A stretch of DNA of 64,000 bases, taken from NCBI RefSeq assembly GCF_030013595.1, contig NZ_CP122768.1; one strand, written 5' to 3'. Source of the DNA: Escherichia coli (GTDB taxonomy: Bacteria > Pseudomonadota > Gammaproteobacteria > Enterobacterales > Enterobacteriaceae). A model generated the notes under the pieces. It ran no database searches and was not told the origin of the DNA. It was given only the letters and a program-made list of their open reading frames with translations. Numbering within the stretch: position 1 is the first letter of the stretch; each line of letters starts with the position of its first letter. The translations under genes were made by a program, and so were the position numbers. Positions 8,535 to 54,993 of this stretch are shown here, piece by piece.

Positions 8535-8609
<75 letters not shown>

Positions 8610-18591: not shown

Positions 18592-19284
18592 ATGAACATA
18601 GGAAACCGAGTCAGACAACTTCGCCAGGCGAAGAACATGAAAATAGCCGATCTCGCTGAAGCAATAGGAGTGGATGCGGCGAATATCTCACGCCTGGAAA
18701 CAGGTAAGCAGAAACAATTCACTGAACAAGCCCTGAGTAATATTGCCAGGAGCTTAGGTGTTGATATTGCTGATCTCTTTACCTCAGACTTCAAAAGTAA
18801 TACTGTATGCAAAAACAGTATTAGTGAGGATGTTGCGCAGGTGAAGGATGTATTCCGTATTGAAATGCTGGATGTCAGTGCCAGTGCGGGAAATGGCCTT
18901 ATCCAGGGCGGTGATGTCATTGATGTGATTCATGCCATTGAATACAGAACTGATAATGCTGTATCGATGTTTGGCGGACGGCCAGCCAATCACATTAAAG
19001 TTATCAACGTTCGTGGGGACAGTATGTGTCCAACCATTGAGCCAGGAGATCTCATCTTCGTTGATGTCAGTATCAATCAGTTTGATGGAGATGGTATCTA
19101 TGTATTTGGTTTTGATGATAAAATTTATGTCAAACGACTGCAAATGATACCTGACAAACTACTGGTGATTTCTGATAACCAGATTTACCGTGAATGGGGA
19201 ATTACCAGCGAAAATGAACACCGGTTTATGGTCTTTGGAAAGGTCTTAATCAGCCAGTCACAAACCCTTAAGCGACACAATTAA
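18592..19284 (+). CDS. CI-type prophage repressor (HTH + S24 LexA-like peptidase domain)
   Basis: 230 aa; N-terminal XRE HTH; C-terminal GDSMCPTIEPGDLIFVD (Ser nucleophile) and later Lys in FDDKIYVKRL. Confidence 0.85.
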   Translation: MNIGNRVRQLRQAKNMKIADLAEAIGVDAANISRLETGKQKQFTEQALSNIARSLGVDIADLFTSDFKSNTVCKNSISEDVAQVKDVFRIEMLDVSASAGNGLIQGGDVIDVIHAIEYRTDNAVSMFGGRPANHIKVINVRGDSMCPTIEPGDLIFVDVSINQFDGDGIYVFGFDDKIYVKRLQMIPDKLLVISDNQIYREWGITSENEHRFMVFGKVLISQSQTLKRHN

Positions 19285-19304
19285 CCCTTACCTCCTCATC
19301 AATT

Positions 19305-19329
19305 AGCCACCCGAAGGTGGCTTTTCATT
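19305..19329 (+). terminator. Rho-independent terminator after cI
   Basis: AGCCACC-cgaa-GGTGGCT followed by TTTCATT. Confidence 0.65.
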
Positions 19330-19804
19330 ACTCATCAAATTGCATATCTCGCAACAAAAACACTTGCATAATGCGCAACTTCATTTTATCTTTCTTTCCA
19401 GACAAACAAACAAGGTACTAACAAAATTTGGTTGTAACACGGCGTATGGCACATGCGTCGTTAGCGGTCTGGGGACGTTAAAGGGGACAATCCACTCCTT
19501 GCTCGGGCAAACAAACCAGGTAGCCGGAATGTGCAAGTCAATGATGATGCTGATAAGACGCCTAACCAGCGTGGCGATTCGGTTTGACGCCTGGGAAGAG
19601 ACCAGGGTGCAACGATGAGGGCATTTATGGAACCGCGACAAAGTGTGGTGCCGTAACTGGCTAAGTGCTCTCAGCGTTGTGGTGAATGCGCAGGCTGATG
19701 CGCGAAAGACATTGCAGATATTGCGGAAAAGAGCTGTTCGGCGGGGCAATTAAATGCCCGTGAGAGTCTGAAATAACCGCAAGCCGGAGATCAGCACCGG
19801 TCAC

Positions 19805-19869
19805 CACAACAGCCACTGCTTTGGCGGTACCAGTTTGTACACTTGCTTCCGGCTGGTACCGTCCTTTTT
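19805..19869 (+). ncRNA. Candidate DicF-like sRNA
   Basis: TTTGGCGGTACCAGTTT resembles the DicF core as recalled; followed by GGTACCAG...CTGGTACC hairpin and CCTTTTT; lies in a ~700-nt stretch with no convincing ORF. Confidence 0.35.
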
Positions 19870-20083
19870 ACAAAACAGAGAAGAGCATCACCGGACGACG
19901 GGCTCATAACCCAATCCATCCGGGCGGCTGCCACCGCAGGTGTTCTTCTCTGTTTTGTGGAGAAACTAACCGCCCCTGCGGGGGCATCTATTGAAACGTA
20001 ATTGACTCAATAATCGCCGGATGGTGAGGGCTTCCTTTTCCCAAAATTCAGCGCGGTGCAGCGCATATAAAGTGGAGAACGAA

Positions 20084-20620
20084 ATGTCATTTATTAAAAC
20101 TTTTTCCGGGAAGCATTTTTATTATGACAAGATAAATAAAGACGACATCGTTATTAACGATATCGCGGTTTCCCTTTCAAATATCTGCCGCTTTGCCGGT
20201 CATCTTTCTCACTTCTACAGCGTCGCCCAACATGCGGTGCTTTGCAGCCAGCTGGTGCCGCAGGAATTTGCTTTTGAAGCTTTAATGCATGATGCAACAG
20301 AAGCATATTGCCAGGACATCCCCGCACCACTGAAACGACTTCTTCCTGACTATAAACGGATGGAAGAAAAAATAGACGCCGTAATCCGTGAGAAATACGG
20401 GTTACCTCCTGTTATGAGCACGCCAGTGAAATATGCCGATCTCATTATGCTGGCAACCGAACGCCGCGATCTCGGGCTTGATGATGGCTCTTTCTGGCCT
20501 GTGCTGGAAGGTATCCCGGCAACAGAGATGTTCAACGTGATTCCACTGGCTCCAGGCCATGCCTACGGGATGTTTATGGAACGCTTTAACGAATTATCGG
20601 AGTTACGCAAATGCGCATGA
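20084..20620 (+). CDS. HD-domain phosphohydrolase, YfdR-like 5'-deoxynucleotidase
   Basis: MSFIKTFSGKHFYYDK... with H...HD motif (AQHAVL ... MHDATEAY); recalled as near-identical to CPS-53 YfdR. Start set at internal ATG of ORF 20021..20620. Confidence 0.8.
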   Translation: MSFIKTFSGKHFYYDKINKDDIVINDIAVSLSNICRFAGHLSHFYSVAQHAVLCSQLVPQEFAFEALMHDATEAYCQDIPAPLKRLLPDYKRMEEKIDAVIREKYGLPPVMSTPVKYADLIMLATERRDLGLDDGSFWPVLEGIPATEMFNVIPLAPGHAYGMFMERFNELSELRKCA

Positions 20621-22000: not shown

Positions 22001-22030
22001 GGGAAGCAATAAGCTTCCCTTCTCTTTATT
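22001..22030. terminator. Hairpin terminator between convergent xis operon and AIPR gene
   Basis: GGGAAGC-aataa-GCTTCCC followed by T-rich tract. Confidence 0.45.
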
Positions 22031-23726
22031 TAGGTACGCTATCAACACTTTTGAGAATCGTTGATGTTAAAGGCTGCGACTTTAGTAAGTCTCGAGAAAT
22101 ATCCGGATCTGGTATAGCTATTTTTACTAAACTCTCAAGTTTTTCAAACCACTCCCCATCATTCATTGAGAATAAGTTATGAAGAGCTTCATTTTTATTT
22201 TTGAACCCCCAAGCCTTATAATTATTACCACAGTATTTTGACGCAGCAGTTAGAATATGCCAGCGTAATTTTGAATACTTCCCATCAAACCTCTTATTTG
22301 AGATAAGAGCCTTTAGCCTATACAAGCAATAGCAAGATATATAATAATCATCCTCGAGGGCATCGGAAGAGAAAACCTCATTAAGTAAGTCACCAGTTAA
22401 CCTATTTGGATAACGACTGGAATAATCTGGTCTCATCATAACAATAGCAGCATATGCTCGCGCAACTTCTCTGATATCAAATATGCGTACTGGAGCTATA
22501 CTTTCTGAACTATACTGCCCCTTTCTTCTCTCAAAATAAATTTTATTTCCTTCAATAGCACCTTTAGCATTAAAATAATGTTCTAATTCCCTTAATTTTT
22601 TTAGCGTTGAAATGAACTGTGCATCTTCAACTTTAGATTGTCTATTCGTAGCTCGTACAATGTCATCAAGGATCGCTGGCTCATCGGTTTCAATTAATTT
22701 AATCATTAAACTAACTGATTCATCTACTTGAATGTCTTTTGATATAAGAACATTAGACGTTTGACATCCATTAACAATTTGAAAATCTCGTATAAAAATT
22801 TCTTGCCCTGCAGGCCTCACGCTTGATGCAACTATTGTCACTCCATTATTCATTAAACCAAATCTTGCTTTTTTTCCATCAGTATCTAGTGTTCCTGCAA
22901 TTTCTGAATTTACGTCACCATCAATTCCCAGAAAATCTCTAACATTTTCTTCGAATAATTTTTTTCGAGGGTTTCCATTTTTGTCTTTAAGTATAGAATC
23001 AATAAAACTACGAGCTTTGACTGTAGCTACATAGGCATTATTAATATTAGGGGCCGCTGGGAATGGAGCATAGCCTATTGTAGGAAGTTTAGCTTCTATT
23101 GGACCTTCCGCAGCAAGCCAAAGCTCATGAATCATGTCTTTGTGAGCCATAATGAAGGATGTTTCATGTGAAAACCCGAGTGACTTTAAGCTTTTTTCAC
23201 CCGATGCAAATGCAGCTTTTATTTCTCTGGCCTCTGTATTTTGTGCAGCACTAAAAAAATATGCGTATAAGTCTGGAAGGCCATTTTTGACTCTGCCGAT
23301 ATTAGCAAATATCAAGTTGAACATTTTTTTAAAGTCCGCTAGATATTCACTGTGGGGTTGTTGTGGCGCTGGTGAAAGATAATCTCTTATTGACGCAATG
23401 TAAGAGTCTATTTCCTGTTTGCTCCACTTCTCCGATGACTTAGCTTGCGTGAATACTAATGAAACTTGAAACTCGCGACGTGAGTTTTGGAAAATCTCCT
23501 GAAGTTCTTCAGTTGAAAAAATGGCTCTGTCGTCTAAAAATAAAAATGCTCCATCAATACCAGGGTCCGGGCCTTCATACACAAGATCACTGACCTCAAC
23601 TTTGTCGCCTGAGTATTTTGAAAAAGCACAATAGTTCACAAACGCCTCAAAATTTTTGGTCTCCTCATAGGGCGCAGCGAATGCTTTGCAAAAGGCATCG
23701 AAATAAGATTTCGTGACTAAATGCAT
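22026..23726 (-). CDS. AIPR-family abortive infection protein
   Basis: 566 aa from ATG at 23726 (AAGGAG Shine-Dalgarno 7 nt upstream); FGLMNNGVTIVASSV ... FQIVNGCQTSNVL resembles the AIPR core; very AT-rich. The ORF-track N-terminal extension is translation of AT-rich upstream DNA. Confidence 0.7.
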   Translation of the reverse strand: MHLVTKSYFDAFCKAFAAPYEETKNFEAFVNYCAFSKYSGDKVEVSDLVYEGPDPGIDGAFLFLDDRAIFSTEELQEIFQNSRREFQVSLVFTQAKSSEKWSKQEIDSYIASIRDYLSPAPQQPHSEYLADFKKMFNLIFANIGRVKNGLPDLYAYFFSAAQNTEAREIKAAFASGEKSLKSLGFSHETSFIMAHKDMIHELWLAAEGPIEAKLPTIGYAPFPAAPNINNAYVATVKARSFIDSILKDKNGNPRKKLFEENVRDFLGIDGDVNSEIAGTLDTDGKKARFGLMNNGVTIVASSVRPAGQEIFIRDFQIVNGCQTSNVLISKDIQVDESVSLMIKLIETDEPAILDDIVRATNRQSKVEDAQFISTLKKLRELEHYFNAKGAIEGNKIYFERRKGQYSSESIAPVRIFDIREVARAYAAIVMMRPDYSSRYPNRLTGDLLNEVFSSDALEDDYYISCYCLYRLKALISNKRFDGKYSKLRWHILTAASKYCGNNYKAWGFKNKNEALHNLFSMNDGEWFEKLESLVKIAIPDPDISRDLLKSQPLTSTILKSVDSVPK

Positions 23727-23982
23727 AAAAACTCCTTTCTGAAATAAGATAAGTTTATTAGAAACAACAAGATAAAGATAAAGATAATAGTAATACAAGT
23801 TAAAGACATACTGCATCACATAAGTTGGTCAAGATCAATAAATCAATAAGGATCCCCTATGTTTTATGTATTGTTGATAATTCTATCACCTCTTACTTCT
23901 GGTCTAAGCGTAACCTACTCAAGAATGCCATTGAAAATGTCCACTGTTCGCTCAAAACAGACTGTCAGGGCTACGCAAGCTG

Positions 23983-54916: not shown

Positions 54917-54993
54917 AGCGCGGTGCGGATGTGCGCCAACACACCCGCACCGCTCATCACAATCACTATTCCAGGAGAATAGCAGTTATGACT
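54917..54993 (-). ncRNA. symR: SymR antisense sRNA (approximate, placed from K-12 knowledge)
   Basis: In K-12 a 77-nt antisense RNA overlaps the symE 5' UTR and start codon; coordinates inferred, not read from sequence signals. Confidence 0.3.

Follow-up and report, generated by a model that had tools for sequence, protein, structure and literature searches.

What does a temperate phage keep between its repressor gene and the first gene of its early-left operon, where no convincing open reading frame (ORF) is to be found? The question is raised by positions 19285-20083 of a 64,000-nucleotide (nt) stretch of an Escherichia coli chromosome (contig NZ_CP122768.1; hereafter the window), 799 nt lying within a lambdoid prophage of the SfV/mEp460/cdtI type, for which an earlier note, made from the sequence alone, had proposed one or more regulatory RNAs rather than protein genes. 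We consider it probable that these 799 nt are the untranslated leader of a repressor-controlled early-left (pL-type) operon and that the leader consists of self-contained modules of structured RNA that follow one another in tandem: U, then X1 and A, then a DicF-family terminator hairpin, and after it B and a last hairpin. The proposal of the earlier note holds good in so far as the stretch is non-coding and contains structured RNAs; it does not in so far as the inverted repeat described there is not a stand-alone element, and two further conserved modules at 19439-19810 had been missed. What has been found is a set of widespread, strongly conserved and uncatalogued transfer RNA (tRNA)-like RNA families, not a new DicF.

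Of 5426 complete E. coli genomes, 2963 contain part of the 799-nt stretch. The same modules occur at 97-100% identity in unrelated phage families, singly or reordered, and there they follow a cI-type repressor, lie in the late leader downstream of Q or belong to clusters of phage tRNA genes, with which they are always co-oriented. Given this recurrence across genomes, the motifs observed here are more than chance. In A, B and U compensatory changes preserve the helices, and a kissing loop in A covaries. None of the three was detected by Rfam 15, including copies of A with short interiors, and only chance matches were returned for the window at the gathering threshold and for the region at E<=10. 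Neither A nor B nor U was found described in the literature searched by sequence string and by topic, which is not proof that they are undescribed; the papers retrieved on Pas sRNA and on anti-sRNAs concern other loci. No second copy of 19285-20083 was found within the window, and the modules are absent from the K-12 prophage CPS-53, which carries yfdR.

Module A is predicted to be a tRNA-shaped four-way junction. BLAST recovered the segment 19675-19811 at 97% identity in P1-like and T1-like phages and the first 30 nt of A at 100% identity in unrelated Klebsiella, Erwinia, Enterobacter and Edwardsiella phages. An exact 20-mer from A, GAATGCGCAGGCTGATGCGC, is present in at least 120 viral contigs and in at least 120 bacterial species, which belong to the Enterobacterales, Pseudomonas, Xanthomonadales, Burkholderiales, Neisseriales, Aeromonas and others. 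Across 114 distinct instances, a conserved 5' block and a conserved 3' block (with GCCGGAGATCAGCACCGGCC) surround interiors of 13-176 nt that are unrelated in sequence. In the alignment of this shell 94% of cells are paired as against 83% in shuffles, and 212 cells have changed on both sides as against 68, a value reached by none of 500 shuffles; controls in which the pairing register was slid collapse. The 7-base-pair (bp) core of P1 (columns 9-15 with 58-64) is 81-99% paired with three to four pair types per position, and P4, which also shows compensatory changes, abuts P1 without a spacer. A 7-bp acceptor-type stem is stacked directly on a 5-bp T-type stem, and the shell of A therefore has the dimensions of a tRNA acceptor/T minihelix. 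The 20-mer was also seen in two Verrucomicrobiota metagenome-assembled genomes, one Acetothermia metagenome-assembled genome and the alphaproteobacterium Martelella (L412, L418, L424 and L401), matches that could reflect either a very wide host range or contaminated bins.

The two loops of the shell are complementary to each other (P2 loop GCUGA, P4 loop UCAGC), and this kissing interaction covaries: CGGC is present in the P4 loop in seven of the eight loci with a GCCGA P2 loop, one C-to-U variant is compensated and two wobble. G-U pairs in A are tolerated on the plus strand only, and where a tRNA gene lies within 300 nt of A (27 of 240 instances) it is on the strand of A in every one of the 27; together these two observations indicate that A acts as RNA, made from the plus strand. 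In phage TL-2011b a tRNA gene starts exactly at the P1 start and replaces A at the identical junction. The commonest protein neighbour of A is an upstream cI-type repressor (25 of 120 loci); A is also found downstream of Q and the late promoter pR', and within the tRNA clusters of P1-like, T1-like and Ackermannviridae phages. In two copies (L095 and L096) a tRNA-type T-arm was seen inside the hypervariable interior. A hammerhead-like ribozyme, considered on account of CUGAUG and GAAA strings in A, was rejected: stem II is misplaced and no Rfam ribozyme model matched.

Module B takes in the inverted repeat of the earlier note, a perfect one of 15 bp in which ACAAAACAGAGAAGA (19870-19884) complements TCTTCTCTGTTTTGT (19944-19958), 59 nt apart. 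Pairing extends beyond the repeat to about 24-25 bp. The fold and the covariation that the note had suggested looking for are both there: the predicted fold of the complete element has -49.3 kcal/mol (z = -7.8), a stability reached by none of 200 shuffles, and its P2 helix covaries across phage variants. Judged by fold and comparison, the repeat does not stand on its own: it closes a conserved RNA with a three-way junction. The B motif GGGCTCATAAYCCAAYC was found in at least 120 viral contigs, which fall into 27 sequence clusters; in all of them P1 is long and varied in sequence, P2 is conserved, and P3 is hypervariable and differs in length. In the P2 helix 89.6% of cells are paired compared with 73.7% in shuffles, and 37 cells have changed on both sides compared with 10.6.

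The P2 hairpin of B contains CGGGCUCAUAACCC, identical at 14 of 14 nt to the anticodon stem-loop of the four-copy E. coli tRNA-Met, which we take to be the initiator tRNA. Its 7-nt loop contains a CAU anticodon and sits on three G-C pairs, and three G-C pairs closing a CAU loop are the hallmark of initiator tRNA. The string GGG-CUCAUAA-CCC is invariant across the 27 variants except for a G-U in the third pair in four of them. B stands directly after tRNA-Arg in Klebsiella phages and after the DicF-family terminator in lambdoid phages. One further copy of the B core motif (L281, near 1715 on the minus strand) lies within a sequence that resembles a tRNA and has both a canonical GGTTCGATTCC T-arm and a 3' CCA; this copy and the A interiors of L095 and L096 may be evolutionary intermediates between tRNAs and modules.

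The segment 19426-19603, which takes in most of module U, matches a segment directly after tRNA-Met in P1-like phages (L005 4497-4680), and a 19-mer from U, GGTAGCCGRAATGTGCAAG, is present in at least 120 viral contigs. The RNAalifold consensus of 19 sequences comprises two hairpins and a long-range helix; eight of its pairs show compensatory changes, for example C-G to U-A in 8 of the 19 sequences, and in one hairpin CCUGG/CCAGG is exchanged for CCUCG/CGAGG or GCCGG/CCGGC. Between U and A lies the imperfect long-stem cassette X1, whose arms match the recurrent CACAACAG.AGAGCA / UGCUCU.GUUGUG stems of RCS47, IME207 and phiEt88 and whose 3' end overlaps P1 of module A. Modules and tRNA genes alike are flanked by a recurrent border motif, which reads CACAACAG at the 5' border and CnGTTGTG at the 3' border, and it is here that BLAST breakpoints fall. 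In X-type stems the 3' arms carry UGCUCUUA, which is identical to a boxA core; a boxA identity was set aside because the octamer is base-paired in these stems. Integron attC sites were also considered for the border motifs, which do not fit the RYYYAAC / GTTRRRY boxes.

Two ORFs that overlap on opposite strands, as the earlier note had observed, are present at 19340-19618 (+) and 19381-19749 (-), and its view that neither is a credible coding frame was borne out when the window was compared with 59 distinct homologous segments. Substitutions at codon positions 1/2/3 numbered 341/221/250 for the minus-strand ORF of 122 amino acids (aa) and 183/270/253 for the 92-aa plus-strand ORF, with no excess at the third position in either. 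Frameshifting and in-frame indels stand at 81:15 and 62:14, respectively, and the homologue in TL-2011b aligns to the 122-aa ORF in two different frames. No PHROG family was found for three of the four ORFs tested; the fourth, a 52-aa ORF over module B, matches phrog_33599 (E = 3.6e-16), and P3 of module B varies in length by non-multiples of three. The RefSeq annotation places nothing in the 799 nt. From the codon-position counts, the frameshifting indels, the frame switch, the P3 lengths, the nearly empty PHROG result and the silence of RefSeq we conclude that the stretch, as judged by comparison of sequences, is non-coding.

The member between A and B had been described as a DicF-like motif with a hairpin and a T-run, and all three are present: TTTGGCGGTACCAGTTT at 19820-19836, an 11-bp bulged hairpin at 19823-19864 (-20.5 kcal/mol, z = -3.4 against shuffles) and TTTTT at 19865-19869. 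Alignment to dicF supports the likeness, with 16 of 17 positions of K-12 dicF nt 13-29 matching over UUUGGCGGUAyCAGUUU and a second, collinear match of 11 of 12 in the terminator tail CCGyCCTTTTTA. The position is equivalent as well, in an early-left operon behind the repressor, the order in Qin being dicA, ydfABC, dicF, dicB. The covariance model, the other comparison that had been put forward, did not follow: RF00039 gave no match in the window at its gathering threshold (48 bits), nor at E<=10 on 19200-20200, and a closer variant (L295) was likewise unmatched, whilst K-12 dicF, the positive control, scored 76.7 bits. DicF represses ftsZ by pairing with it through its 3' part (PMC5069750). 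In the window hairpin this half is replaced and the DicF loop sequence is absent, and the calculated duplex with the ftsZ start region has -29.9 kcal/mol, at the 50th percentile of shuffles, as against -38.5 kcal/mol and the 4th percentile for DicF; a division-inhibition phenotype is therefore without sequence support. The claim of a DicF-like RNA stands for the 5' arm, the terminator tail and the operon position, and falls for the Rfam model and the ftsZ-pairing half. When the sequence preceding module B was collected across dozens of phages, it proved to consist of terminator hairpins that have their base in common (UUGGCGG... / ...CCGCCCUUUUUAC) and differ in an exchangeable apical part; some of these hairpins (L280, L295, L334 and L273) keep the DicF loop motif ACyCCGUGA. 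By its sequence and place the window hairpin is a relative of DicF in the homologous position, and by the family model it is not DicF; the variable loop gives it different targets, if any.

The comparison with Qin bears on module B too. The 5' end of DicF is made by RNase E, the RNA binds Hfq, and its 3' ends arise by termination, giving 53 nt, or by RNase III processing, giving 72 nt (PMC5069750). Just after dicF in Qin (L003 2946-3091), the dicF-dicB segment is closed by a 13-bp stem, GAAUUUUGUGAUG/CAUCACAAAAUUC, and from its sequence the segment looks like a degenerate module A in which the kissing loops are no longer complementary. The same stem reads GAATTTTGTGATG / CATCACAAAATTC when written out, and the interior has GTGGTGAATGCGGCTGAGCGC and CCTGGAGGCACCAGGCAC. 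In our own mapping on the Qin sequence, the point 19 nt past the 53-nt DicF end falls inside the 13-bp stem, which probably contains the RNase III site that gives the 72-nt form. By analogy with this stem, the stem of module B is likely an RNase III site.

Features of the stretch 19285-20083 and its borders. Positions are those of the window unless another sequence is named.
Feature	Position	Strand	Description or basis
cI-like S24 repressor ORF	ends 19284	+	ORF list
Intrinsic terminator of the cI-like repressor	19305-19326	+	7-bp GC-rich stem, then T-run
Putative OL operators, TTGC-N7-GCAA	19340-19354 and 19364-19378	+	exact site matches
Putative pL promoter	19364-19392	+	-35 TTGCAT 19364-19369, 17-nt spacer, -10 TATCTT 19387-19392
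Module U, structured RNA of ~170 nt	19439-19606	+	recurrence, RNAalifold covariation
Module X1, imperfect long-stem cassette	19608-19683	+	5' arm GCAACGAUGAGGGCA, 3' arm AGUGCUCUCAGCGUUGUGG; minimum-free-energy fold
Module A	19676-19810	+	tRNA-shaped four-way junction; covariation
A P1	19676-19685 with 19801-19810	+	7-bp core
A P2	19688-19703	+	GCGCA/UGCGC, loop GCUGA
A P3	interior between P2 and P4	+	hypervariable
A P4	19783-19801	+	GCCGG/CCGGC, 5 bp, loop UCAGC
DicF-family terminator hairpin	19820-19869	+	arms UUUGGCGGUACCAG / CUGGUACCGUCC, variable apical loop, U5
Module B	19866-19962	+	three-way junction; fold, inverted repeat, covariation
B P1, ~24 bp	19866/19870-19894 with 19934-19962	+	closing stem
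B P2	19891-19923	+	carries hairpin GGGCUCAUAACCC (19900-19912)
B P3	19924-19937	+	length variable among homologues
Hairpin C, CCGCCCC-UGC-GGGGGC	19970-19985	+	predicted fold; 3' edge of conserved block
Variable junction and 5' leader of yfdR-type gene (start 20084)	19986-20083	+	BLAST
Border motif sites	19674-19683, 19804-19812, 19870-19878; L005 2420-2700; L006 1420-1640; L008 1335-1640		

That the array lies in an early-left leader is suggested by its surroundings. Genomes 99.9% identical to this one annotate an XRE/S24 repressor at window 18592-19284 (+), with divergent cro-like and ymfL/Rha genes, then the unannotated 799-bp gap, then yfdR (a 5'-deoxynucleotidase gene, from 20084), more early-left genes, an AIPR gene and the integrase gene; this lambdoid gene order puts 19285-20083 between cI and the first pL gene. 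The site homologous to the repressor terminator carries a rho-independent terminator annotation in phage SfII, and that annotated feature, considered as a possible DicF-like hairpin, was rejected as such: it is the cI terminator. The site TTGC-N7-GCAA is found without mismatch at 18557, between cI and cro, and again at 19340 and 19364, the last of which overlaps the -35 of the putative pL. The segment 19340-19392, which BLAST breakpoints mark as immunity-specific, is a plausible OL/pL from its sequence. Downstream, the conserved block stops at 19983 in most phages. Hairpin C, at this edge, has no U-run on the plus strand and a terminator-like score on the minus strand, and homologues place a hairpin of other sequence at the same position; the junction that follows (19986-20083) is absent from most homologues, and the downstream coding sequence is annotated in the 99.9%-identical genome.

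A course of events can be proposed for this leader. On loss of the repressor, pL would make a single polycistronic non-coding transcript that is later processed. Many transcripts would end at the DicF-family terminator and yield an RNA with a 3' hairpin and U-tail, like the 53-nt DicF, and those that read through would fold the B stem of about 24 bp into a substrate for RNase III, whose cut would separate the non-coding RNAs from the downstream messenger RNA. Module A would act as a tRNA mimic, with its 7+5-bp acceptor/T minihelix, an 'elbow' made by the two kissing loops and a hypervariable arm on display, and B as a tRNA mimic displaying an arm like the anticodon arm of initiator tRNA; both may be handled by, or act on, host machinery that recognises tRNA. 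In the simplest version, A and B would be released as stable RNAs by tRNA-processing enzymes, like the tRNAs that neighbour them. More tentatively still, A may be an undescribed, ultraconserved tRNA-shaped scaffold with a hypervariable arm and B a partner with an initiator anticodon arm, the two forming with U a new class of phage 'tRNA-cluster RNAs' that acts on a conserved host machine and not by pairing in the manner of a small RNA (sRNA); this we regard as possible rather than probable. The candidate machines would be tRNA-processing or tRNA-targeting enzymes, the ribosome or RNA polymerase.

Several observations weigh against an array of tRNA-like modules made from pL. The putative pL, which was read by eye and is weak by consensus, was not flagged in a promoter consensus scan, and for this reason we infer OL/pL rather than count it as observed. 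The minimum-free-energy z-scores of A (-1.67) and U (-0.76) are unremarkable. Six loci have uncompensated kissing-loop variants (C26 to A and G28 to U). ARAGORN found no tRNA in 19000-20500, and the Rfam tRNA model matched neither A nor B. The two modules are without the canonical D-loop GG and T-loop UUCRANY, the loops reading GGCUGA and AGAUCAGCA, and the 3' tails of A are C/A-rich (CACC, CCCA, CCAA and ACCC being the commonest; ACAGCC in the window) with no fixed NCCA. A terminator follows 26% of A copies as against 12-13% of controls, and as this enrichment is only about twofold A is not simply an sRNA gene with its own terminator. The parts given to RNase III and RNase P are proposed by analogy, and no reports of transcripts, processing or phenotypes of the modules were found.

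Could A, U or both instead act in cis, as processive antitermination or anti-Rho elements in the manner of the HK022 put RNAs or of rrn boxA? RNA polymerase would then pass the DicF-like terminator and a long untranslated, Rho-sensitive leader or tRNA array. A is found in both leaders where lambdoid phages need such an element, behind cI/pL and behind Q/pR', and in the window it ends 10 nt before a strong terminator that the downstream genes must pass. No N-like gene was found among the ORFs and annotation of the prophage. The extreme conservation across Proteobacteria would also suit a conserved target such as RNA polymerase, and UGCUCUUA in the 3' arms of X stems resembles boxA. The HK022 elements, putL and putR, are likewise cis-encoded structured RNAs in early-operon leaders of phages without N, and the position of A in pL and pR' leaders is compatible with them. 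They share neither sequence nor topology with the modules, however: put RNA, about 70 nt long, folds into two stem-loops arranged in a V and contains a triplex (PMC9378689), whereas A is a four-way junction of tRNA-like dimensions and B a three-way junction, a mismatch that speaks against identity with put. The boxA-like octamer is sequestered in a long stem, copies of A also stand mid-cluster among tRNAs of P1-like, T1-like and Ackermannviridae phages, and only about a quarter of the A copies have a terminator to pass. We therefore hold this explanation to be doubtful.

A little more doubtful is the idea that A and B are anti-defence or translation-targeting decoys, which would titrate host tRNA-directed nucleases or factors, the B arm as bait for VapC-type anticodon nucleases, the 30S subunit, IF3 or MetRS and the A arm as a party to an arms race. 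The identity of the B hairpin to the initiator anticodon stem-loop and its constancy across 27 clusters would be expected of such bait, as would the hypervariable interior of A between ultraconserved flanks, and an AIPR abortive-infection gene lies in the same prophage. Early-left operons commonly carry anti-defence genes. The argument is purely inferential, however. The variability of A could equally mean an unconstrained interior, and the neighbourhood analysis shows no link to any specific defence system.

That the terminator hairpin is a true orthologue of DicF, an Hfq-dependent sRNA that would block ftsZ translation and cause filamentation on derepression, with the rest of the stretch as processing context, is improbable. 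It has in its favour the operon position shared with dicF in Qin, the match at DicF nt 13-29 with the terminator tail, and the loop motif kept in the four relatives named above. These are set against the silence of RF00039 on both the window and L295, the replacement of the part by which DicF pairs with ftsZ (PMC5069750) and a duplex energy no better than that of the median shuffle.

Two further readings are unlikely. In the first, for which we see very little probability, the repeats and conserved flanks act as DNA, as recombination hot-spots, as mosaic junctions (CACAACAG / CnGTTGTG) or as single-strand hairpins in replication or recombination. BLAST breakpoints between phages do fall at module borders, a tRNA gene and A have been swapped at one identical junction in TL-2011b, and unrelated phage families share modules at near identity; yet G-U pairs on one strand only, the unbroken co-orientation with tRNA genes (27/27) and the covariation between loops and within internal helices are needless for a recombination site. 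The second, that small proteins are encoded by the 122-aa minus-strand ORF (annotated in mEp460) and/or the 52-aa ORF over module B, is the least probable of all, for although depositors have annotated hypothetical proteins here in several phages and the 52-aa ORF has its PHROG match, there is no codon-position signal, frameshifting indels dominate, the frame switches among homologues, P3 lengths are not multiples of three, the RefSeq pipeline is silent and the other three ORFs have no PHROG family.

The array of tRNA-like modules favoured here resembles several known RNAs without being any of them. With DicF (RF00039) it has in common its place behind the immunity repressor in an early-left operon, a hairpin that serves as Rho-independent terminator, its GGCGG...CCGCC base, its U-tail and the string UUUGGCGGUAyCAGUUU, and a module closed by a long stem directly after the U-tract. 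It differs in an unrelated apical half without the ftsZ-pairing nucleotides, in a longer stem (11 bp) that the Rfam model does not score, and in the structured RNA modules that precede the hairpin, where Qin has small ydfABC-type ORFs. The bacterial Y RNA-like YrlA (PMC4201824) and the stable non-tRNA species of phage tRNA clusters are likewise non-coding, found in phages, tRNA-like in architecture and co-transcribed with or replacing tRNAs, and in A, too, another module replaces one cloverleaf arm. In A, by contrast, the D-like and T-like loops kiss by Watson-Crick pairing and do not form a canonical elbow, and in B the likeness is confined to the anticodon arm. A Y RNA identity was rejected: neither the Ro-binding motif GNCGAA(N)G nor a TψC-type T-loop was found in the modules when read by eye, no TROVE/rsr-like gene is among the recurrent flanking ORFs, and the Rfam Y RNA models did not match.

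ROOL and GOLLD are ornate RNAs of phage genomes, of unknown function, often beside tRNA genes and with kissing loops; they are much larger, have other folds and belong to other host phyla, and their Rfam models gave no match here. Proteo-phage-1 and sRNA-Xcc1 share the non-coding arrays of related proteobacterial phages with copies of the modules and are themselves compact, each with a terminal stem that closes it; their sequences and folds are different, and neither is present in the window. We know of no function for Proteo-phage-1. One copy of it (RF03044, 63.7 bits; L074 5903-5982) lies 160 nt upstream of a copy of A, and one of sRNA-Xcc1 (RF02221, 70.4 bits; L278 2209-2293) lies downstream of a copy of B, which suggests that both belong to the same pool of exchangeable modules.

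Part of the stretch is matched in over half of the complete E. coli genomes searched, where it is unannotated or its content is called 'hypothetical proteins'; to read it as an array of RNA modules is to correct the annotation in many phage genomes. DicF then takes its place in a far larger family of terminator hairpins whose loops can be exchanged, which would be a modular route by which prophages evolve new sRNAs. At least two tRNA-like RNA families with a constant shell, a hypervariable arm and unusually strong conservation stand outside Rfam 15, and they would add a new layer to phage-host interaction if their partners are indeed tRNA-handling enzymes, anticodon nucleases, the ribosome or RNA polymerase. 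As the modules are small and occur in cultivable coliphages (mEp460, P1-like and T1-like), the question is directly testable.

Some further features of the window were recorded. The AIPR-family (abortive infection) gene, at 22026-23819 (-) between the early-left genes and the integrase gene, lies on the opposite strand in an AT-rich segment and looks like a defence 'moron'. Rfam matches to the C4 antisense RNA (83.6 bits) and isrK (67 bits) at 17145-17333 (-) fall in the 5' third of a 383-aa ORF (16542-17693) that RefSeq annotates as a Rha-family regulator; its true start is probably near MATIPTLTQPE, with an isrK/C4-type RNA control region for an antirepressor upstream. A tRNA-Gly (UCC) with encoded CCA lies in the late region of the prophage at 8535-8609 (-) and is presumably closely similar to the host glyT. 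The SymR antitoxin RNA at 54917-54993 (-), with 93.5 bits, is a known chromosomal feature.

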